Below, piece after piece: positions 17,749-31,912 of a stretch of 54,722 nt of DNA. The translations under genes were made by a program, and so were the position numbers. The notes below the pieces were generated by a model that was given only the letters and a program-made list of their open reading frames with translations, made no database searches and had not been told where the DNA came from. This stretch comes from a virus (Duplodnaviria; Caudoviricetes), in the IMG/VR virus record IMGVR_UViG_3300049190_000028, positions 1-54,722 of that record; one strand, given 5' to 3'. Position 1 is the stretch's first letter; each line of letters begins with the position of its first letter.

Positions 17749-18879
17749 TCAGACGGCCGCCGTGAAGGCCGAGTCGACCGTGATCAAGCCGTAGTCGAGG
17801 CCGTTGTAGGCCGTCTTGTCGGCGCCGAAGATCATCTCGAAGAAGAGGATCTTGTCGTGGCCGCGGTCGTCCTCGTCCTCGTCCAGCGCCACTTCCAGGC
17901 CGTCAGCCATGCCCTTGGTGCCGTGGGCGATGAAGCCCGCGTTGGCGCCGAGGAACAGCGAGCGGGCCGCCGGGATGTTGCCGCCGGCGCCGTAGTCGTT
18001 GAACTTGACGCCCGTCTCCATCTCGTCCACCAGCACGCCGTTGAACATGCCGGCGCCGCCCTTGAAGATCTCGCTCTCCTTGCCGATCTGGGCGGTCAGG
18101 GCCTTCTGCGCCTCGAACCAGCCTTGGGCGCCGGTGTCGTCGCGGATGTCCTGCATGACCTCGGGGAGCACGGCCAGTGCGAAGAACTTCTTGCCGCCCT
18201 TGGAGATGGGCGTCATCTTCACAGCCTTGTCCGGCTGGCCGCCCAGCATCTTCTTGCTCTTGGTGCGGAGCTTGTTGATGCTGGCCAGGTTCAGCTTGTC
18301 GCCAGCGACCAGCGTCGCCTTGGCCGCGGTGCCGGCCTGGCCCACGTACAGGTGCGCCGTATCGGGCGCGCGCAGCGCGTTCGGGTAACCGGCGTAGGTC
18401 AGGCCGAAGTGCTGGATCTCCTCGGTGTTCGTGCCGCGGGCGCCGGACAGCGCCATGCACAGCACCTCCTCGTACATCTCCTTGATGTAGTCGGTCAGGC
18501 GCTCGCGGCCCTGCTTCTTGAGGTTGAAGCCCACGCGCGACTGCTCGATGCGAGCGCCGACGTTCACGCCGTGGCGGAACTCGTTGATGCGCATCGTGTG
18601 GCTGGCGTGCTGGAGCTTGAACTCGCGGCCGGCCAGCTTCTTGCCCTCGGTGATGGGCTCGCCGCGGAGCTTGGCCACCAGCGCGGTCGTCACCTCGTCG
18701 CCGGGGCCGCCATTGCTGGAGCCCTTCTCGGTGTCGACCTTCTTGATGATCGCGGAGTTGGTGCCTTCCTCGCCGATGTGGCGAGCGAAGTACATCTCCT
18801 TGATGGAGTCCTGGGCGACCGTGGCCGACCAAGCCTTGCGCTTGTTCGGGTCGCTCGGAAGGATCGAAGTGCGTGCCAT
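17749..18879 (-). CDS. Major capsid protein, N4-gp56 family
   Basis: GDEVTTALVAKLRGEP, INEFRHGV, IFKGGAGMFNGV, DYGLITVDSA; AGGAGG RBS. Confidence 0.92.
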   Translation of the reverse strand: MARTSILPSDPNKRKAWSATVAQDSIKEMYFARHIGEEGTNSAIIKKVDTEKGSSNGGPGDEVTTALVAKLRGEPITEGKKLAGREFKLQHASHTMRINEFRHGVNVGARIEQSRVGFNLKKQGRERLTDYIKEMYEEVLCMALSGARGTNTEEIQHFGLTYAGYPNALRAPDTAHLYVGQAGTAAKATLVAGDKLNLASINKLRTKSKKMLGGQPDKAVKMTPISKGGKKFFALAVLPEVMQDIRDDTGAQGWFEAQKALTAQIGKESEIFKGGAGMFNGVLVDEMETGVKFNDYGAGGNIPAARSLFLGANAGFIAHGTKGMADGLEVALDEDEDDRGHDKILFFEMIFGADKTAYNGLDYGLITVDSAFTAAV

Positions 18880-18904
18880 GAAACCTCCTGTTGGTGAGGC
18901 ACAT

Positions 18905-18922
18905 GGCGCACTCATGCGCGCC
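18905..18922 (-). promoter_or_regulatory. Hairpin GGCGCGC-AUGA-GUGCGCC in capsid mRNA leader
   Basis: 7-bp stem; 13-nt core identical to 25740-25752. Confidence 0.55.
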
Positions 18923-18936
18923 TGGGAATGACCGGG

Positions 18937-19134
18937 TTAACCGGTCCGCTTGGTGGGCCTTTTGATGCGAACCGCGTCGGGGGCCTTCACCAGAAACCGA
19001 GCGATCTGCCCGGACTTCTGCAAAAGTGTCAGAGTGATTTCGGGGGAGTCAACCCCACCAGCACCCGTCAACGTCAAGGTCTCGCCGACCTTGACCTCGA
19101 TGGCCACCTGACGTGGTGTCGCGTCGTTCATCAT
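18937..19134 (-). CDS. CsrA/RsmA-like RNA-binding protein (65 aa)
   Basis: VKVGETLTL...ITLTLLQKSGQIARFLVKAPDAVRIKR aligns by eye to CsrA RRVGETLMI...[27 protein letters not shown]; ATG overlaps scaffold stop. Confidence 0.7.
   Translation of the reverse strand: MMNDATPRQVAIEVKVGETLTLTGAGGVDSPEITLTLLQKSGQIARFLVKAPDAVRIKRPTKRTG
19025..19061 (-). promoter_or_regulatory. Putative late promoter copy 3 (capsid), inside the csrA-like gene
   Basis: CTGGTGGGG-TTGACT-N16-GACACT. Confidence 0.6.
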
Positions 19135-20120
19135 TCGTCCAGCATCCTGGCCTTCTGGGCCGGGCTCAGGCGGTTGAAGGCATCCTGGTAGTCCTGCCCC
19201 TTCAGGTTGGCCAGCGCGTCGAGCGCATCGCCGCCCGTGTTCGGCGTGGAGGCCGACGGCAGGGTGCGCAGCGTCGTCGGGACCGCCGGCGTGGTGCGCT
19301 TGCCAGCAGCAGGCGCAGCAGGGCTCTCGGCAGGCGACGCAGCAGCGGCCGGCGCCGGCGCAGCCTTGACGCCTCGCACAGCGCACAGCGCGTCATGGGC
19401 CAGGCGTGCCAGCTGCTGGAAGGTCTTGCCCTCGTTCGCCGGGTCGCCCGCGACCGCGTGCAGCATGCGGTCGTAGGCCGCACCGACTTTGGCGTCGCTG
19501 TAGTCGAGCTGACCAGCCGCCTTCGAATCCGCCGCCAGCGAGGTCAGCACGCGGGTCTGGTGGCGCACCAGCGCCTGGCGGTTCATGTCGGCAATGGTCT
19601 GCGCCTGCGTCTCCTCGCGGATCAGCTCGGTCTGCTGGTCGCGCAGTCCACGCAGCTCCTTCCGACGGTCCTCGTCGGTGAGTTCGCCCTTGGCCCACCT
19701 CTCTTCGATGGCGTCCTCGGCTGCTGCCAGCTTCTGGCGCTCGGCCTTGAAGTCCTTATCGCTGACCTGCAGCACGTCCGGCTCGACGTCCAGGTCGTCG
19801 CCGGCCACCGCGGCCAGCGCCTCGGCGTCGAGCGCGGGTTCGTCCTTCGGCACCGCCTGGGTGTCGGCAGCGGCCGCTTCCGCACCTGCAGCCGCAGCAG
19901 CGTCGGTTTCGCCGTCGGCCTGGCTGGCCGCCGCAGCCGCGACATCGGCAGCTGCGTCGGCTTCCTCGCTGGCGGCCGCATCGGATTCGGTCGCGCCACC
20001 TTCGTCGTCCGGGTCGTCGTTGTCGCCCAGCGGATCCTCGCCACGCGCGATGGCCTCGGCGATCTTGCTGGCGAGTACTTCGGAGGCGGACTGGCCGCCC
20101 GTGGTGTTCATTTGCATCAT
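19131..20120 (-). CDS. Capsid scaffolding protein
   Basis: Acidic N-terminus and coiled coil; lies between portal and capsid. Confidence 0.8.
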   Translation of the reverse strand: MMQMNTTGGQSASEVLASKIAEAIARGEDPLGDNDDPDDEGGATESDAAASEEADAAADVAAAAASQADGETDAAAAAGAEAAAADTQAVPKDEPALDAEALAAVAGDDLDVEPDVLQVSDKDFKAERQKLAAAEDAIEERWAKGELTDEDRRKELRGLRDQQTELIREETQAQTIADMNRQALVRHQTRVLTSLAADSKAAGQLDYSDAKVGAAYDRMLHAVAGDPANEGKTFQQLARLAHDALCAVRGVKAAPAPAAAASPAESPAAPAAGKRTTPAVPTTLRTLPSASTPNTGGDALDALANLKGQDYQDAFNRLSPAQKARMLDE

Positions 20121-20133
20121 GTGCTCCTGGTGG

Positions 20134-20337
20134 TTACTTGCCGTCGGCCACGGCCGCTGTCGCGTCCGTCACCTTCTTGAGGTTGGCCAGCTCCTCGCGC
20201 GCCGCAGCCTTCGCCTTGGCATGGCGGGCCTTGTCGCGCTTGATCTCCTCGGCCCTGGCCAGGGTCCGCATGTCGTCTTGGATTTGCCAGTTCGGATCCG
20301 GGCCGATGCAGCAACCCGTCGACTTCTTTGACATCAC
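20134..20337 (-). CDS. Small phage protein
   Basis: WQIQDDMRTLARAEEIKRD; coupled to portal. Confidence 0.65.
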   Translation of the reverse strand: MMSKKSTGCCIGPDPNWQIQDDMRTLARAEEIKRDKARHAKAKAAAREELANLKKVTDATAAVADGK

Positions 20338-22529
20338 ATCGCTCCTTGTGCGACGCCATCCGGCGCCATGGTTTCAATACCTCGCATGGCGCCGTCCGCC
20401 TGCAGAGGTTCGGGAACGGAAGGCCCGGGCTGGGCCTGGGCCGGCTGCTGCGCAACAGCGCCGCCGTCGCGGTCTTCGAAGCCGGCCGACTTCAGCAGCT
20501 GGTCCGCGACCGGCATGGCGCCGGGAATCTGCACAGCGACCTGCGCGGCCTGGGCGGCCATGTAGATCGTCTCCAGCCGCTTGGCCATGCCCTCGGCTTC
20601 CAGCTTCTCGCCCTTGGCCTGCGCCTCCAGGACGGTCGCCTTCAGCTGTGCCATGTGCGCCTCGAACTCGGCCTTCGCCTTCGCGGCCGCCATTTGCTGG
20701 GCCTGCTGCTGCTCGGGCGTCAGCTTGCCGTCGGGCGAGCTCTGGCCTGTGACCTGGCGGATGCGCTGCAGGATCAGCGCCTTCTTCGGCAGGTTCGGGT
20801 GGATCTCGAACAGCACATCCAGCATGGCGATGACCACGTTCGGCGCCGCGGCGGCCAGCTGCGTGAAGACCTGCATCAGCTGCTCGAAGGCGGCCTCGGC
20901 GTAGTTCTGCTTCCAGGCCTGCTCGCTGACCACGAACCGCGACCGACGCTTCGTGATGTCGTTGCGGTAGCTGCCGTCCGCCTGCTGCTCGTTGATCTTC
21001 AGGAACTCATGCTTAGCGTCGCCGGGGATCGTGATGGTCCGGGGCGTCACCATGAACTGCTCCATCAGGCTCAGCACCATCTCGCCTTCCATCTGCCGGG
21101 CGAAGTACTGGTTGTCCACCAGCTGCGCCGTCAGGATCGAGCCCTGATCCGCCTTGGCGAGCACCGCCTTGCCGCTGGTCGCGTTCGAGTCGAGTCCGCG
21201 GTTCTCCGACGTCACGCCGGACGTCTGCCGCAAGTGCATGAGGTCGTGCTCGGCCAGCTGCAGCTGCCTCTGGGCCTTGCCAAGGTCATCGCGCTCCTGC
21301 ACCCTGCCTGCGGACAGCGCGCCATCGGCGAAGACGGCGATGCCGTTCGGGTCATCGAGTTCGGCCCGAATCTCCTCGATGTCCATCACTTCCGCGTCGA
21401 TGGCGGTCCTCTCCATCTTGACCTGGTTCTTTGCCGCCTCCCAGACCGAACGCCCCATCCGCATGTTCAGCGCGTCCTGCGGGCCGATCATGCGCACGAT
21501 TGGGCTGTAGGGCATGCCCGTCGACCGCTTGACGTAGGCGACGTACGGGATGAACGGGAACAGCTCATGCCGAAACGGGCTGACGTCGGTGTGCAGCACG
21601 TCGTGCTCGGTCATGATCGTGACTCTGATCTCCCAGGTGACGGGATCGCCCAGGCCCTCGTCGTCGAGCTTGCGCTTGATGGGCTCACGATGCCAGCACT
21701 CGACCAGCATCACGCGCTCGCGCGGGTTGAAGACGTCGACCGGCCGTGCGGTGTTGAACTCGTCGGGCTCCCAGCTGCCGTCGAAGTGATCCAGCCCAGA
21801 GATCAGTCCGCTGCCCAGCCAGGCGCCGAACGAGTTCAACTGGTCGCCCTCCTGCATGACGCGGCGCAGCTCCGTCTCCTTGTCCGGGAAGCAGGCGATA
21901 GCGACGTCCAGGTCCACGACCTTGATGCGGAAGTGATAGCGGCCATCGGTGAAACCGCGCTTGGTGGCCTGGCTGTCGTGCAGATGGTTGCGCCAGCTGT
22001 CGCCGCCGATGAACACGATCGGTCCAGAGCGATCGCCGCGAACGCCCACCTCCACCCAGCCCAGCCCCGCCTTCAGCTGCGACTGCACGGCGTCGCTGCG
22101 CTCGAACGACGCCTTGTTCGTCGCGTCGAGCCACTTCATGGTCTTGGTCTTCGCCTGCGCTTCGTCGGCGGCTTCCTCGCCCTCTTCCTCCGGCACGACG
22201 ACAAAGTCCGTGCGGTTGCGGATCTCCGTGCCGATCATCCAGTCGATGGCAGGCGCGATCTCGTTGTAGACGACAGGATCCTGGCCGCGGTCGCGCAGGT
22301 CGTCGGCGCGCTTGCGGGCGATCTGCTCGTTGTCGTAGTAGGCCTCGCACTTCGCCATCTGCCGACGGTTCGACGCCTGGCGGGTTGCCTCGTGGAAGAA
22401 CCAGCCGATCAGCCGGCGGTGCAGCGCCTCGTTCTTCTCCGCCTCGCTGGATGCGCGCTGCTGCAGCGCATCGGCGTGCGCGGCGCGGTCCTTCTTGGGA
22501 ATGGTGCGCTTGAGTTCAGGGCTTGCCAT
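20334..22529 (-). CDS. Portal protein (P22-like)
   Basis: AYYDNEQ, RGQDPVVYNEI, FPFIPY, PQDALN; C-terminal Gln-rich barrel. Confidence 0.92.
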   Translation of the reverse strand: MASPELKRTIPKKDRAAHADALQQRASSEAEKNEALHRRLIGWFFHEATRQASNRRQMAKCEAYYDNEQIARKRADDLRDRGQDPVVYNEIAPAIDWMIGTEIRNRTDFVVVPEEEGEEAADEAQAKTKTMKWLDATNKASFERSDAVQSQLKAGLGWVEVGVRGDRSGPIVFIGGDSWRNHLHDSQATKRGFTDGRYHFRIKVVDLDVAIACFPDKETELRRVMQEGDQLNSFGAWLGSGLISGLDHFDGSWEPDEFNTARPVDVFNPRERVMLVECWHREPIKRKLDDEGLGDPVTWEIRVTIMTEHDVLHTDVSPFRHELFPFIPYVAYVKRSTGMPYSPIVRMIGPQDALNMRMGRSVWEAAKNQVKMERTAIDAEVMDIEEIRAELDDPNGIAVFADGALSAGRVQERDDLGKAQRQLQLAEHDLMHLRQTSGVTSENRGLDSNATSGKAVLAKADQGSILTAQLVDNQYFARQMEGEMVLSLMEQFMVTPRTITIPGDAKHEFLKINEQQADGSYRNDITKRRSRFVVSEQAWKQNYAEAAFEQLMQVFTQLAAAAPNVVIAMLDVLFEIHPNLPKKALILQRIRQVTGQSSPDGKLTPEQQQAQQMAAAKAKAEFEAHMAQLKATVLEAQAKGEKLEAEGMAKRLETIYMAAQAAQVAVQIPGAMPVADQLLKSAGFEDRDGGAVAQQPAQAQPGPSVPEPLQADGAMRGIETMAPDGVAQGAM

Positions 22530-22530
22530 G

Positions 22531-23031
22531 TCAGACCGCCGCCTCGCTGATGACCTTGCCGGTGTTCTTGTCCTTCGCCGTCACCTCCCACATGGCCTGG
22601 CCCGCCATCTCGCGGCGGATGCTCCGCGGGGTGGGCGGCATGTGCACCAGCTCGGGCGCGAAGCGGACCACGCAATCGACCAGCGCCAGGAACGCTTGCT
22701 TGTCGTTGGCGTCCTTGCCCAGCACCTCGAGCGCCGCCAGGGCCTCGCGGTAGCAGTGCTCGGACGCGCCGCCTGTGCAGCGGCCGTCGTTCGTGAAGCC
22801 GATGAACTCGGTGATGGCGCGGCGGCTGATCACCCAGATGCCGTTGCCCTCGCCAGAGACGAACACGTTGCTGGCCGACCAGATGCACATGCACGGCGCG
22901 GCGCGGCGGTGATTGCCGACCCATTCGAGGCTCACGACAAAGCCGCGGTGCTCGAAGGTCTTCCAGGCGTGATCGCCACCGGCCGACCACATGGGCCGGC
23001 TGTCGGGCGTGAGGATGGGAGAGAGTTGCAT
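22531..23031 (-). CDS. Hypothetical protein between terminase and portal
   Basis: ORF tightly fills the gap. Confidence 0.7.
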   Translation of the reverse strand: MQLSPILTPDSRPMWSAGGDHAWKTFEHRGFVVSLEWVGNHRRAAPCMCIWSASNVFVSGEGNGIWVISRRAITEFIGFTNDGRCTGGASEHCYREALAALEVLGKDANDKQAFLALVDCVVRFAPELVHMPPTPRSIRREMAGQAMWEVTAKDKNTGKVISEAAV

Positions 23032-23033
23032 GC

Positions 23034-24677
23034 TTACCTCCAGCGCCTGTCGCGCTGCTTGAACCGTGAAAGGGAATCGCCGGCGGCCTGGGTGACTGGG
23101 CCCTGGTAGCCCTGCGCGAACTGGCGCCAGCCATCGGCACCATGGCTCGCCCAGTTGTGCAGCGGCTCGCTTGACCAGACGCCGCGCTTCTCATCCCAGA
23201 CGAATTGGTAGCCGTCCAGGCACCGGATGCCATGACCAGCGCCCATGTCCTCGCCGGCCTCGAAATCGGGCTTGCGCTCATCGAACCAGTGGTTGCCGCG
23301 CAGCGCCGAGCGCGTGATCTCGATGCCCTGGCCGATGGTGGCCACGCGCGGCACGACGACGATGGCGCCGCCCTCGCCGCGGCCCATGCCCAGGCCTTCC
23401 AAGATCCTTCGCTTGGTCGTCACGACCTCGCCCAGGATCTCGGCGTCGGCATCGTGCGGCAGGTAGTGGCGGCCCCAGACGTAGCCGTGGCGCTTGCGGT
23501 GCGCCTCGCACACCGTCAGCCACCAGTGGCGCAGGTCCTTGCCGTTGCCCTCGATGTAGTAGAACCAGCGGTGCTGCAGGCCGATCTGCTGGTGGAACCA
23601 GATCGTGTTGTTGTCCGAGAGGCCGAAGTCCCAGAAGGTGTCGACCGGGAAGTTGATGTCCAGCGGCACCGAGCCGATGCGGCCCTGCTCGCGCAGCCAT
23701 GTCATCTGCTCGCCGTAGACCGCTCCCTCGATGGCCTGCTCGAACGCTTCCTTGGGCGTCGCAGGGTATTCCTGCTTCATCTTCTTGCCCAAGGTCTCGG
23801 CCTTCTTGGCGTACCAGGCGCGCTGGTTCGCGTCGATGGTGATCCGCAGCTCGGCTTCCAGCTTGCGGAAGTACTGCTTCATGGCCGCCGGGATCTCGAC
23901 GACGGCCGTGTCCTCGTCGCTCAGGCGGTAGTCCTTGCAATCGAACCACGGATAGAAGTGCAGACGCCAGTCGAGCACCGTCTCGGGCATGCCGGCCTCG
24001 CGCCGCTTCATCGCCGGCTCGCACAACTCGTAGAACAGGCCGAAGGCGCCCTCGGCGGTGGACTCGACCACGATGCAGCCGTCCTGCGGCACCGCCTCGA
24101 AGGCGCCTGTCTTGATTTCCTCGGCGCGCTGGGGGAACTTGAGTGCGATCTTTCCGAGCTCGGAGACGTGCAGCAGCTGCACGGTGCCGCCGCGAGCCGA
24201 CACGCTCACGCTGATCGTGCTCGGGTGCAGCTTGCCCTCGGCGTCCAGGTGCCCGAAGGTGATCTCGCTGCCCTGGGTCTTCTTGTGGACCGGAAACATG
24301 CCCTTCAGCAGGTCGGGCAGATGGTCGTAGGCGAACTCGACTTTCTTGAACAGCTTGCCGGCGTTCGGCAGCGTGTCCGCTATGACCACGCAGTTGAAGT
24401 CGCGGTTGAACAGCGCCTGGTCCAGCTCCAGGATCTGCATGAGCGTCGAGAAGCCCAGCTGGCGGGCCTTCAGGATCAGGTTCCGGTACCAGAGCCGCGA
24501 CACAAAATCGCGCTGCTGGTCGTTCATGCAGAACGGCACCGGCTTGGCGTCCTTGTTGACGATCCAGTACAAGTTGTCCAGGCGCCAGTTCAGATCGTCG
24601 AGCCGCGCATCGGGCCCGAGCATGGCTTCGATGTTGATCGCCAGCTCGCCGCCGGCCTCGATCTCCGTCACTTCCAC
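23034..24677 (-). CDS. terL: Terminase large subunit
   Basis: LKARQLGFST Walker A, LLHVSE Walker B, VESTAEG, WDFG, HNWASHGAD nuclease motifs. Confidence 0.95.
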   Translation of the reverse strand: MEVTEIEAGGELAINIEAMLGPDARLDDLNWRLDNLYWIVNKDAKPVPFCMNDQQRDFVSRLWYRNLILKARQLGFSTLMQILELDQALFNRDFNCVVIADTLPNAGKLFKKVEFAYDHLPDLLKGMFPVHKKTQGSEITFGHLDAEGKLHPSTISVSVSARGGTVQLLHVSELGKIALKFPQRAEEIKTGAFEAVPQDGCIVVESTAEGAFGLFYELCEPAMKRREAGMPETVLDWRLHFYPWFDCKDYRLSDEDTAVVEIPAAMKQYFRKLEAELRITIDANQRAWYAKKAETLGKKMKQEYPATPKEAFEQAIEGAVYGEQMTWLREQGRIGSVPLDINFPVDTFWDFGLSDNNTIWFHQQIGLQHRWFYYIEGNGKDLRHWWLTVCEAHRKRHGYVWGRHYLPHDADAEILGEVVTTKRRILEGLGMGRGEGGAIVVVPRVATIGQGIEITRSALRGNHWFDERKPDFEAGEDMGAGHGIRCLDGYQFVWDEKRGVWSSEPLHNWASHGADGWRQFAQGYQGPVTQAAGDSLSRFKQRDRRWR

Positions 24678-25606
24678 GTCTTGCCCTTCTGGCCGCCCAG
24701 CGGCGGCTTCAGGTCAGCGGTGGCTTTCGGCGCCGCGATGGGCAGCCGGCCGCCCTGGCGCGAGTGGATGCCCGCAGCGAAGGCCGTCAGCATGTCGCCC
24801 AGGCCCTTGCCCTTCTGCTCGTTGTCCTTCTCGTAGATGCCCAGATGGCGAGCGATCTTCTCCGCCGCGTCGAGCTTCGAATGCATCTTGACCTCGATGC
24901 CCTTCTCCGTCTCCTTGATGCCCGCATACAGCGCGGCGGCCTGCGGGCTCAAGTTGCGCGTGTCCTTGATGAACGTGCGGCCGCGCCCGGCGCCCAGGCA
25001 TTCCGGGCAATCGGGATGAGGTTCCAGGCGCGGATCGAAGCCGAAGCCGCCCGCGTCGGATGGGAGCCGCAGCGTTGGCTCCGGTTCACCCGGCCGCCGG
25101 GATGCACGCTTCTTCTCGTACTCCACCAGCGCCGTCTCGTGCGCGACCTCAAACTCCTCCTGCGTCTTCCACTGGTGCGCGTGGCCGATGCCATGGCAGT
25201 GGCGGCAGCACAGCACGATGTGCGAGACCAGCTCACGCGGATCAGCGATCACGACGTTCCAGATCTCCGCCAGCAGCGCCTCGCGCGTGATCTCCAGCTT
25301 CTTGGCCGTTTTGGCCCGCTCAGAAGCGATGAAAGCGGCCACACTAGGGTTAGCTAGTAGTCGGCAACCCTCGACGTTCGCGGTCGATGCCTTCACGCCT
25401 GGGAAGGCGCGCAGATAGGCCTGCGTGGCGTTCAGGTCGATCAGGTACTCGTGGGCGAAGCGCTCCGCCTTTGGGGTCAGTTGCTCTGCGAGCGACAGCT
25501 TCTTGCCCGGTCGCGCTGGAGCCGCTGCCTTGGGCTTCGCCTTGGCTGCTGGCTTCTTCGCGGGGGCGGCCTTCTTGGCGGCGGGCTTGGTCTTAGCGGT
25601 CGCCAT
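24668..25606 (-). CDS. terS: Terminase small subunit with Zn-finger insertion
   Basis: FAHEYLIDLNATQAYLRA HTH; CRHCHG / CPECLGAG; KMHSKLDA...RHLG. Confidence 0.88.
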   Translation of the reverse strand: MATAKTKPAAKKAAPAKKPAAKAKPKAAAPARPGKKLSLAEQLTPKAERFAHEYLIDLNATQAYLRAFPGVKASTANVEGCRLLANPSVAAFIASERAKTAKKLEITREALLAEIWNVVIADPRELVSHIVLCCRHCHGIGHAHQWKTQEEFEVAHETALVEYEKKRASRRPGEPEPTLRLPSDAGGFGFDPRLEPHPDCPECLGAGRGRTFIKDTRNLSPQAAALYAGIKETEKGIEVKMHSKLDAAEKIARHLGIYEKDNEQKGKGLGDMLTAFAAGIHSRQGGRLPIAAPKATADLKPPLGGQKGKTWK

Positions 25607-25760
25607 GGCTTTCCGCTTTGGCCCAGATGCGCTCGATCTGGGCGGCCTCGTGCCGGGGGAGCTGCTGGCGCCTCTCTGCGGCTTGGCGCAGGACGGCGGA
25701 GTAGATGTTCTCGCGGGGCGGGGGCTGCTGTGCGCTCAGGCACTCATGCGCGGTGGGCAT
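25593..25760 (-). CDS. Small leader ORF upstream of terS (55 aa)
   Basis: ATG 7 nt after the -10 of late promoter 4; overlaps the terS start. Confidence 0.4.
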   Translation of the reverse strand: MPTAHECLSAQQPPPRENIYSAVLRQAAERRQQLPRHEAAQIERIWAKAESHGDR

Positions 25761-25767
25761 GAGCAGC

Positions 25768-25804
25768 ATTGCAAGGGTGAAAGGTCGAATGTCAACCCGT
25801 GCAG
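25768..25804 (-). promoter_or_regulatory. Putative late promoter copy 4 (terminase/head operon)
   Basis: CTGCACGGG-TTGACA-N16-TGCAAT. Confidence 0.75.
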
Positions 25805-25857: not shown

Positions 25858-26310
25858 ATGCAGGCAATCATGTGGAACGCGGAGCGGGAGCGGTCGCTCG
25901 CGCGCCAGATCGAACGGGTGAAGCAAACCTTCGCAGACTTTCAAGGAGCAGTCGATTACTTGAAAAGCGAGCCATGCAAGTTGAAGGGCATCGAACTAGA
26001 GCTCGCGCCGAACAATTCACTCATGCGGATCGCATACGAGCAGATCGAGTTGGAACTGCGCCTGACCTACTTGCGCTCGACGACCTTGGGCGTCATCGGT
26101 CGCGTGTCTGCGGTGCTCACCAAGCATCCGCTCGATGCCAGCAGGCCGATCCTTGAACGCTTCCAGATCGACCGCGATGGCAACTGCCATGTGACGGGGA
26201 CGACAGACGCCGACGATCAGCGGCTGAGCCGCTGGGCATCCGACATAGTCATGACGCTCGTCGAGCGAGCCCTCATGCACGAACCCGCTGATGGCGCAAA
26301 AGTGCCCTGA
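25858..26310 (+). CDS. Counter-oriented moron, hypothetical protein (150 aa)
   Basis: AGGAGG RBS, lower GC, opposite strand. Confidence 0.75.
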   Translation: MQAIMWNAERERSLARQIERVKQTFADFQGAVDYLKSEPCKLKGIELELAPNNSLMRIAYEQIELELRLTYLRSTTLGVIGRVSAVLTKHPLDASRPILERFQIDRDGNCHVTGTTDADDQRLSRWASDIVMTLVERALMHEPADGAKVP

Positions 26311-30975: not shown

Positions 30976-31912
30976 CCTCCATCTCGCGTTGCTTGCGGGC
31001 TACCCAGTCGTCGGCAGCCGCACGGTTGCGCTGCTCCTGGGCCTCTTGTCGATTCGGCTGCTGGCGCCGGCCGCAGCGCTCGGCTACCGCGGCAGAGAGC
31101 CATGTCTCGGGGTTGATCGGCCGCTCGACGCAGGCGGCCTGAATGGCTTCAAAGAGGACGCGGCGGTCGGCACCGGCGGTCTTGATGCGCTTACCCAGGC
31201 CGCCGACGAACAGCCTGGCCTTGGCTTCGCGCTGCTTGGCCTCGCCCGCCGCTTCGCTGTAGCTGGGAATGAGAAGACCCAGGGCGCCGTTCCAGAGCAA
31301 CACTTCCTCTGCTTCGGAGAGGTCCCGACCTTCGATTTGAAGCGCGGCGCCTGCGGCGATCACATCGGCGGCGGCGCCGCCCGATGCGTCAGCATCGGAA
31401 TGCTTCTGTTCCTGTTCCTGCTCCTGCTTCTGTTCCTGCTCCTGGTTAAGGAACCGTTTCTGAACGGTTGCCGAAGGGTTCGGCGCCGGAGGCATAGGCG
31501 GGGGTGGCAACGGCGGCGGCTCGATGCCAAGAGACGGGCCGATTTCAGAGAGAAAACGCTCGCGCCATGTGCACTGATCCGGCACGCGCGCGACCACCTT
31601 CGCGGCGGCCTTACGCTGGTTCGGGTTCTCAGGCGGGTTCCACTCCAAAAACTTCGTTACCCAAACCCACAGGGTTGCCGAGCAACGCGTTGCAAAACCC
31701 TTTGCGGCGAGGTTCTCGAACCCTTTCGAAACCCTTTCCGGAGTCCACTGCAAGTCTTCGCAGACGTACCCATCCGGCACCCGGAACACGCCTGCGATGG
31801 TCGCGTGCTTGCAGATCAGCAGGTACAGCACCAACGTGCGACCGTCCTCGCTGAGCGAGCGGAAATCGTCGCTCTCGTAGATGCTGCTGAAGACCTTGCC
31901 GTACTCGCGCAT
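30956..31912 (-). CDS. Replication initiator (O-like)
   Basis: LSEDGRTLVLYLL N-terminal wHTH, WNPPENPN, EQEQ linker; internal iteron-like repeats. Confidence 0.8.
   Translation of the reverse strand: MREYGKVFSSIYESDDFRSLSEDGRTLVLYLLICKHATIAGVFRVPDGYVCEDLQWTPERVSKGFENLAAKGFATRCSATLWVWVTKFLEWNPPENPNQRKAAAKVVARVPDQCTWRERFLSEIGPSLGIEPPPLPPPPMPPAPNPSATVQKRFLNQEQEQKQEQEQEQKHSDADASGGAAADVIAAGAALQIEGRDLSEAEEVLLWNGALGLLIPSYSEAAGEAKQREAKARLFVGGLGKRIKTAGADRRVLFEAIQAACVERPINPETWLSAAVAERCGRRQQPNRQEAQEQRNRAAADDWVARKQREMEDDHATQ
31451..31740. repeat. Iteron-like repeats (AACCSTT core); probable replication origin
   Basis: gaaccgtttc...gaacggtt...gaagggttc (31451-31481); aaaccctttg, gaaccctttc, aaaccctttc (31695-31740). 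Confidence 0.55.

Follow-up and report, generated by a model that had tools for sequence, protein, structure and literature searches.

The virus record IMGVR_UViG_3300049190_000028 of IMG/VR, a stretch of 54,722 nucleotides (nt) that was analysed over its whole length and is called the window here, encodes a protein of 65 amino acids between a putative scaffold gene and the gene for the major capsid protein. Judged from its sequence and from a predicted structure, this protein is a homologue with the CsrA fold that lacks the C-terminal helix. We propose, with a probability of roughly 0.6, that this helix-less CsrA-fold protein binds hairpins of the type found in the leader of the capsid gene (hairpin P1), and that this binding alters translation initiation at two places, the capsid gene and the head of the packaging operon. 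The proposal is built on the fold of the protein, on the presence of the hairpin beside its gene throughout the related loci and on the covariation of the hairpin stem. RNA binding and dimerisation of the protein, as well as the direction and the purpose of the regulation, are what we infer from these observations. As far as sequences and the literature searched can tell, the new element is a module of gene and hairpin with a relaxed loop, an invariant G.U stem and an alternative fold; such a module is absent from that literature.

The CsrA-like protein and its family

Comparisons of sequence and of structure both lead to CsrA. In the open reading frame (ORF) between scaffold and capsid, the first-pass annotation had recognised VGETL, AP and the arginine that corresponds to R44 of CsrA; it had found no C-terminal helix and had proposed a CsrA-like fold, and our analysis agrees with it in all these respects. 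In the translation of 18937..19134 on the minus strand (MMNDATPRQVAIEVKVGETLTLTGAGGVDSPEITLTLLQKSGQIARFLVKAPDAVRIKRPTKRTG), VGETL occupies residues 16-20 and AP residues 51-52, and R59 aligns with R44 of RsmE/CsrA. The protein matches the PHROG family 8397, 'CsrA-like regulator', with an E-value of 1.5e-9. When a profile of 17 family sequences was compared with the PDB, the top seven sequences were all CsrA/RsmE (E 2.7e-4 to 0.022) with strands 1-5 aligned; this alignment pairs VGETL, the G-Q-x-A-R turn, AP and the final arginine with CsrA residues 7-44, and it places an insertion of seven residues relative to CsrA between strands 2 and 3. The top ten Foldseek matches of the AF2 model (predicted local distance difference test, pLDDT, 84) are likewise all CsrA/RsmA/RsmE, with TM-scores of 0.56-0.65, probabilities of 0.99-1.00, a root-mean-square deviation (rmsd) of 2.1-3.3 over 48-54 columns and E-values of 0.05-0.2. 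With VIA-align, two CsrA chains ranked first among 48,161 chains, at Z 6.3 (rmsd 3.9, 52 aligned) and 5.0, ahead of an unrelated chain at 3.2. The protein ends six residues past R59, and the model has no helix; a 49-residue 'Truncated-CsrA' chain is present in PDB entry 5z38. DSSP assigns only three strands to the monomer model (19-23, 32-41 and 44-50) and none where strands 1 and 5 of CsrA align, as would be expected if these were paired with a second chain. A homodimer prediction with two copies and the family alignment (A1) scored 0.38, below the required 0.42, while the controls scored 0.00; this speaks neither for nor against a dimer.

A HMMER search against 1.84 billion representative proteins returned 18 proteins at E <= 0.001, 14 of which have 59-102 amino acids and the same pattern. 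The other four are long repeat proteins of 799-1814 amino acids (P0007, which is cadherin-like, P0016, P0018 and P0022) with 4-7 matching stretches each; these matches are probably compositional, reflecting strands rich in T, I and D, and proteins of the P0007 type were excluded from alignment A1. A tblastn search with the family member P0011 found 88 records of cultured phages, 41 from Pseudomonas, 31 from Ralstonia, 10 from Burkholderia, 5 from Erwinia and 1 from Bacillus, and many of them are labelled 'CsrA-like regulator'. The gene family is thus already annotated, not CHARACTERISED, and the window gene is a new member of the 'CsrA-like regulator' family of Bcep22 gp54 and F116p47: it shares with PHROG 8397 the match to the hidden Markov model, the size range of 59-71 amino acids, the lack of the helix and the location in a late structural module. 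To our knowledge, the annotations of the homologues in Bcep22 (gp54), F116 (F116p47), PEp14, Cimandef and 8P are based on similarity only. A survey from 2020 counted 30 csrA-positive phages, among them Bcep22, BcepIL02, DC1, PEp14 and Pavtok, and described Burkholderia hosts as having no chromosomal csrA; in the accessible part of its text, targets for the phage csrA are not proposed and the word 'capsid' occurs 0 times (PMC7366521). For phage PTXU04 of E. coli, knock-down of the csrA homologue gp28 in a CRISPRi-ART screen resulted in small plaques; CsrA homologues of phages and plasmids have been catalogued, but according to the accessible part of this 2025 study, no earlier work had tested what role they play when a phage multiplies (PMC11879866). 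No hairpin target of phage CsrA homologues is described in the literature that was searched on these proteins.

The arrangement of the genes suggests that the CsrA-like protein would be translated in tight coupling with the scaffold gene. The first ATG of its gene overlaps the TGA stop codon of the scaffold gene, and the second ATG (19131), from which a protein of 64 amino acids would be made, forms a TGATG overlap with the same stop codon. This overlap recurs in 13 of 33 distinct junctions of relatives, and in most of the remaining junctions the scaffold stop and the CsrA-like start are at most 7 nt apart. Some stop-to-stop frames are long; a small domain fused to the scaffold protein was nevertheless ruled out, as the small gene is not read in the frame of the scaffold gene. 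Translational coupling to the scaffold and the position inside the head-morphogenesis module would also suit a protein that takes part in head assembly or has a structural role, resembles CsrA only in its small beta fold and has no affinity for RNA; the variation of the R44 equivalent within the family and the weak matches that small beta proteins give, with the Foldseek E-values mentioned above, are compatible with such a role. However, the homology is visible at the sequence level and is specific for CsrA, the gene lies in the tail region of F116 and 8P rather than beside the scaffold gene, and a structural role leaves the co-inherited hairpin with its GGA loop unexplained, so that we rate this reading as the least probable of those considered here.

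The capsid-leader hairpin and its loop

The leader of the capsid gene contains the hairpin P1 (GGCGCGC-AUGA-GUGCGCC; 18905..18922, minus strand), the candidate operator, which is defined by its sequence, by a covariance model, by its counterparts in relatives and by covariation. The first-pass annotation had described a hairpin with an AUGA loop at this place, and this hairpin is real, with seven base pairs. It is located 21 nt 3' of the stop codon of the CsrA-like gene and 26 nt 5' of the capsid ATG at 18879. The Shine-Dalgarno (SD) sequence of the capsid gene reads ACAGGAGG, again as noted before, with AGGAGG at 18884..18889 on the minus strand, and the GGA motif within it lies 26 nt 3' of the P1 loop. 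A two-site geometry of hairpin plus SD is typical for CsrA dimers. P1 scores 28 bits with the covariance model (E 3.6e-4), P1 itself being part of the training set of that model. Rfam contains no family that reaches the gathering threshold anywhere in the window, and around the leader it gave chance-level rows only. The P1-type hairpin is probably the RNA target of the CsrA-like protein, as it is the best candidate offered by the sequence comparisons described in the following.

Related loci were retrieved by means of the capsid protein; with the single small protein as the query, no relatives were found in viral, metagenome and genome contigs, and loci found by TerS (at most 50% identity, from other phage groups) were left out. 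Of the 44 viral loci selected by their capsid protein, 43 have the CsrA-like gene upstream of the capsid gene, and the remaining locus has no upstream DNA. All 47 gene-bearing loci, four of them genome-derived, have a CGC-N4-5-GUG hairpin in the interval from the 3' end of the CsrA-like gene to the start of the capsid gene. All seven pairs can form in 41 of the 47, which corresponds to 3.72 sites per kilobase as compared to 0.035 per kilobase in the remaining parts of these loci. There is some redundancy among the loci, with 39 distinct leaders among 49. The association of hairpin and gene that the first-pass annotation had pointed to in a single phage thus extends across its relatives. Their usual hairpin is GGCGCGC-AGGA-GUGCGUC, with the GGA loop that is canonical for CsrA targets, followed by an SD of the AAGGAG type 20-25 nt downstream. 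The stem covaries: the outer pairs 1, 2 and 4 vary (from G-C to U-A, A-U or C-G), the inner C-G, G.U and C-G pairs are unchanged, and in four of the seven pairs both partners change. Covariation scores 0.426, compared with 0.126 in shuffled alignments, none of which (0/500) reached 0.426, and with at most 0.112 in slid controls. In this alignment 96.3% of the cells are paired, a percentage that is inflated because its 23 sequences were chosen by a pattern that needed at least six of the seven pairs (Bcep22 excepted). The invariant sequence of the G.U stem suggests that the stem itself is recognised.

The hairpin is also found 3' of the gene in cultured phages with other backbones, i. e. in Bcep22, Cimandef, F116, 8P and Stean. 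The gene that follows it belongs to the tail module in F116 and 8P; in four related loci (L010, L011, L017 and L018) it is an inserted gene rather than the capsid gene. Since the hairpin has been kept with the CsrA-like gene even where the downstream gene has changed, it is linked to this gene and not to the capsid gene as such. Extra genes for proteins of about 100-200 amino acids between the CsrA-like and the capsid gene were seen in these four loci as well as in L030, L032, L040, L046 and Cimandef (L266, 3768-4067); where such a gene has been inserted, the hairpin stays with either the CsrA-like or the capsid gene. The motif GGCGCGCANGAGTGCG has 120 matches in viral contigs, and 27 of them have the gene at most 400 nt upstream. 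At the position N, these gene-linked matches have G in 25 cases, A in 2 and T or C in none, and the other 93 matches have G in 36, C in 22, T in 20 and A in 15. The CsrA-like gene ends within the loop of another hairpin of the window (GACCGG-UUAAC-CCGGUC, 18930-18946, minus strand), which contains its stop codon; one contig of run X8 has a deletion of 1 nt at 18931. At the same place, directly 5' of the operator hairpin, many relatives have a terminator-like hairpin and a run of U.

The AUGA loop had been taken by the first-pass annotation as a sign of a non-GGA hairpin with an altered specificity. According to this idea, recognition has been switched from GGA to AUGA, and two identical AUGA copies form a private code that links capsid and terminase. 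Indeed, both sites in the window and a third copy of the 10-mer CGCATGAGTG read AUGA (3 copies on one strand as compared to 0.37 expected), the GGA form CGCWGGAGTG occurs only once in the window, at chance level and antisense to genes, and the residue that corresponds to R6 of CsrA is not basic. The comparison with the relatives speaks against such a switch, and we consider it very improbable. Among them, the loop varies at positions 1 and 2, with AGGA as the usual form beside UGGA, AAGA, AUGA and AGUA, and the constants are the inner stem together with a G (rarely U) at position 3 and an A at position 4 of the loop, so that its first two positions look tolerant. The closest relative (L259, with a capsid protein that is 85% identical) has an AAGA loop, and a near-identical leader (L042) has AGGAA. 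Two unrelated members of the family, 8P and the Erwinia phage Stean, have independent occurrences of AUGA, in Stean in the form AUGAC. Moreover, relatives mix loops within single genomes: 8P has an AGGA site beside its AUGA site, G002 has AGGA twice and UGGA, G003 has AGGA twice and AAGA, G004 has UGGA and AAGA, and G005 has AGGA and AAGA. Conversely, near-identical proteins go with different loops (AGGA in L036 and UGGA in L027; AGGA in L013 and AAGA in L016), and among the family proteins compared no residue tracks the loop type or the AUGA group. Since different loops occur within single phages, an altered specificity is unsupported, and to judge from these comparisons the AUGA of the window is a variant and not a new code. 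The two AUGA sites of the window recur identically in contigs of other soil metagenome runs (the capsid-leader site in X6, the second site, which is described below, in X6, X8, X12 and X14) and are, therefore, no assembly artefact. No RNA run was listed among the sequencing runs with this DNA.

Packaging operon, alternative fold and proposed mechanism

The 13-mer CGCGCATGAGTGC is present twice on the minus strand, at 18908-18920 and at 25740-25752; the chance expectation is 0.01, and none of 100 shuffles reached two copies. The second copy (GCGC-AUGA-GUGC, four pairs) covers codons 4-7 (A-H-E-C) of the first ORF of the packaging operon. This ORF of 55 amino acids (25593..25760, minus strand) lies ahead of terS, with a stop codon that overlaps the start of terS; the closest relative, L259, has conserved it, and a PHROG match is absent. 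The first-pass annotation had placed the second copy at the very 5' end of the terminase transcript. The recurrence of the 13-mer stands, whereas its position in the transcript depends on a promoter-like sequence that was read by eye and at which a promoter scan called nothing (25768..25795, minus strand: TTGACA at 25790-25795, a spacer of 16 nt and TGCAAT at 25768-25773). Similar TTGAC...TTGCAAT motifs precede the operon in two relatives (L135 and L263). Since the promoter-like motif ends 7 nt before the ATG at 25760, the transcript of the packaging operon may be leaderless or nearly so.

Relatives have hairpins at the same place. In five of the nine relatives for which the region is available (G002, G003, G004, G005 and L262), the covariance model finds a full hairpin of 18-22 bits within the first ORF of the packaging operon, at nt +7 to +30. 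There, it encodes (S/A)-R-(K/W/R)-S-A in a reading frame that differs from that of the window, and since the RNA motif has kept its place although the frame has changed, the RNA and not the peptide appears to be under selection. In G002, G003 and L259, a further copy of the hairpin carries the SD of the scaffold gene in its loop. As to other sites in the window, the third copy of CGCATGAGTG (26018-26027, minus strand) is part of a hairpin at 26014-26031 with six of seven pairs and an AUGA loop, antisense to a gene on the plus strand (25858-26310). Two matches of the covariance model (1756-1772 and 31017-31034) were set aside as coding sequence with non-consensus loops, and a permissive scan of the window for hairpins gave noise only.

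P1 is not part of the minimum free energy (MFE) fold of the capsid leader. Over 64 nt, a fold-back structure reaches -27.0 kcal/mol, as compared to -23.5 kcal/mol if P1 is enforced. In the MFE folds, the loop of P1, its 3' arm and the next three bases (AUGAGUGCGCCAUG, 18902-18915) pair with CAUGGCACGCACUU across the capsid start codon (positions -2 to +13 of the gene, 18866..18881, minus strand), and this duplex has -16.3 kcal/mol and a z-score of -3.2 relative to shuffles. Complementarity of the loop and 3' arm to the SD and AUG region exceeds that of shuffles in 35 distinct leaders taken together (mean z -2.24), with 18 of the 35 below -2 and 30 below -1. The partners differ by group, being GGAUGUGC and GCACAUCC in Bcep22, GGAGUGUG and CACACUCC in Cimandef, and CAGUAGUGC and GCACUACUG in L032. 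For roughly one third of the leaders, P1 is kept in the MFE fold, beside a second hairpin that has the SD in its loop and in which the start codon is paired. From sequence and predicted folds, the fold-back pairing suggests a switch.

A switch of this kind would work without any protein. The hairpin could, therefore, be a protein-independent cis element, i. e. a fold-back switch, a site of RNase processing or stability, or a transcription signal, and the CsrA-like protein could act elsewhere, for instance on host mRNAs or small RNAs (sRNAs), the adjacency of the two being synteny. The pairing with the SD and AUG region, which is stronger than chance in most leaders, and the terminator-like hairpin with its run of U directly before the hairpin in many relatives are in line with this idea, and manipulation of the host has been proposed for CsrA homologues of mobile elements, as stated in the accessible parts of two papers (PMC11879866, PMC7366521). 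However, the hairpin follows the gene through changes of the backbone and of the downstream gene (F116, 8P, L010, L011, L017 and L018), and its usual loop is the very motif that is recognised by the fold family of the protein. In addition, the host family is mostly devoid of CsrA, which makes a Csr sRNA network that could be hijacked unlikely. We regard a cis element that is independent of the protein as rather unlikely.

In the reading that we prefer, the CsrA-like protein, probably as a dimer, would bind the hairpin by way of the invariant inner stem (C-G, G.U, C-G) and a loop of 4-5 nt with the sequence N-N-G-A(N). Binding to the copy in the capsid leader and to the shorter copy at the head of the operon would change translation initiation of the late genes. 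The effect would most likely be repression, which we take as the default because of the precedent of CsrA and because the site at the operon head lies inside the ribosome footprint. At the capsid gene, the protein would span the distance from the hairpin loop to the SD, whereas at the operon head it would occlude the ribosome footprint. Such a feedback would tie the output of capsid and packaging genes to that of the scaffold gene; that the circuit balances capsid against packaging proteins, as had been suggested in the first-pass annotation, is what we infer as well. The 3' arm of P1 can bury the capsid start codon, and a choice between two conformations of the RNA may be what the protein makes, in place of this repression or in addition to it.

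Several observations weigh against this proposal, in addition to the inflated percentage of paired cells. With respect to the protein, its score with the Pfam family CsrA (PF02599) is 15.8 bits (E 0.014) and thus remains below the cut-off of 27, which a relative of the L261 type from the same phage family passes with 29.4 bits. The residues that correspond to L4, R6, R7, V42 and R44 of CsrA are I12, V14, K15, I57 and R59 in the window protein, so that R7 and R44 are kept and R6 has been lost to a hydrophobic residue. In the phage family, the R44 position is occupied by R or K in most members and by N, P, Q, L, S or T in others: it is asparagine in F116, proline in 8P, and glutamine in Bcep22 and in the two closest relatives (P0004 and P0005). 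With respect to the RNA, canonical CsrA requires GGA, and the loop is not strictly GGA, as AUGA, AAGA and AGUA occur; the binding mode, if there is any, must therefore differ from the textbook mode of CsrA. The second site of the window has only four pairs and scores 11.6 bits with the covariance model (E 2.5, rank 10 of 44), and at E <= 1 this model detects no site at the operon head in four of the nine relatives (G001, L259, which is the closest, L261 and L263). A hairpin over the scaffold SD is absent from the window. Finally, repression of the most abundant protein of the virion is not an obvious need. It is conceivable, though unlikely in our view, that the protein made together with the scaffold licenses the capsid gene: it would clamp P1 and block the fold-back onto the capsid start, so that capsid translation would be on only once scaffold is present, and binding at the operon head would turn the packaging operon down. 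This would amount to a late switch that acts in two directions through RNA conformation, with a helix-less CsrA that reads the G.U stem and the N-N-G-A loop and not a strict GGA.

Phage context and comparison with known systems

The 54.7-kb window has a G+C content of 67%, and its late genes are on the minus strand. Downstream of the 55-amino-acid ORF, they comprise terS for the small terminase subunit (24668..25606; Pfam Terminase_2, E 1.1e-28), terL (23034-24677), an ORF of 166 amino acids (22531-23031), the portal gene (20334-22529; P22_portal, E 3.9e-111), an ORF of 67 amino acids (20134-20337), the putative scaffold gene (19131..20120), the CsrA-like gene, the gene for the major capsid protein of 376 amino acids (17749..18879; Pfam Phage_capsid_3, E 5.1e-39; PHROG 334, E 1.9e-68) and a gene for a virion protein of 152 amino acids. 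The protein that we call scaffold has 329 amino acids, is acidic and rich in alanine and matches PHROG 8246, a family of unknown function (E 1.5e-18); its name is derived from the position of the gene between portal and capsid. The ORFs of 67 amino acids (between portal and scaffold) and of 166 amino acids (between terL and portal) are small and look conserved, and both are without a family match. The divergent gene on the plus strand (25858-26310; 150 amino acids) faces the late promoter region and may encode a regulator; its third-position G+C of 0.76 is below that of its neighbours, and a PHROG match is absent.

The gene order of the window is that of the Burkholderia phage Bcep22, in which the portal gene is followed by two genes, the gene for the CsrA-like gp54 and that for the major head protein. 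The window represents a soil phage of the Bcep22 type. Its host probably belongs to the Burkholderiales, since relatives of the capsid protein were found in metagenome-assembled genomes (MAGs) labelled Roseateles, Rhodoferax, Rhizobacter and 'beta proteobacterium'. When 81 genomes from the family to which a host MAG belongs were sampled, canonical CsrA was found in only 3 (L268-L270 in G043, G051 and G068, with about 70 bits), and in four host MAGs the sole CsrA match is the phage's own gene. The rarity of CsrA in the host family and the restriction of the matches in the host MAGs to the phage gene point to a self-contained circuit. In this sense, the description as a phage-private circuit by the first-pass annotation is fair, but the hairpin is no private non-GGA element, as it is a variant of the hairpin that is present in all the gene-bearing loci.

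With this work, the family gains a concrete candidate target, a hairpin of about 18 nt that travels with the gene across phage backbones and is found at the starts of capsid, scaffold and packaging genes. If the binding is true, the two would form a compact, host-independent module of translational control that works in hosts mostly without CsrA. It would also be a natural CsrA fold with relaxed recognition of the loop and additional recognition of the stem, which would inform on the specificity of CsrA for RNA and could serve as an orthogonal regulatory part.

Compared with CsrA, RsmA and RsmE (PF02599), the window protein has the same chain fold over strands 1-5 and shares the positions of VGETL, G-Q-x-R, AP and the R44 equivalent, and the candidate target is likewise a short hairpin, usually with an AGGA loop, and the SD that follows after about 25 nt contains another GGA. 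It differs in the missing C-terminal helix, the insertion of seven residues, the Pfam score below the threshold, the hydrophobic R6 equivalent and the variable R44 position of its family. The hairpin differs as well, as its loop tolerates AUGA, AAGA and AGUA and its stem with the G.U pair is invariant. Moreover, the protein is encoded by a phage and linked in cis to its sites, unlike a global regulator of the host that is antagonised by sRNAs, and no decoy sRNA was seen in the window. With the family of Bcep22 gp54, F116p47 and the homologues in PEp14, Cimandef and 8P, the window protein has PHROG 8397, the synteny of Bcep22 and the same hairpin downstream in common; within this family, it is a divergent member with the insertion GAGGVDS and an AUGA loop. 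PTXU04 gp28 is a CsrA homologue encoded by a phage, too, and the accessible part of the study reports no RNA target for it (PMC11879866). Escherichia phages are absent from the 88 records found with P0011, and gp28 probably belongs to a distinct, more canonical lineage.

Translational repressors with RNA operators are known from phages; the MS2 coat protein, which binds the replicase hairpin, and RegA of T4 are examples. As with these two, a small phage protein would bind a short hairpin at or near the start of another phage gene and would thereby set the ratios of proteins late in infection. In contrast, the folds are unrelated, and the operator described here is found at more than one late gene and has an alternative pairing with the start region.

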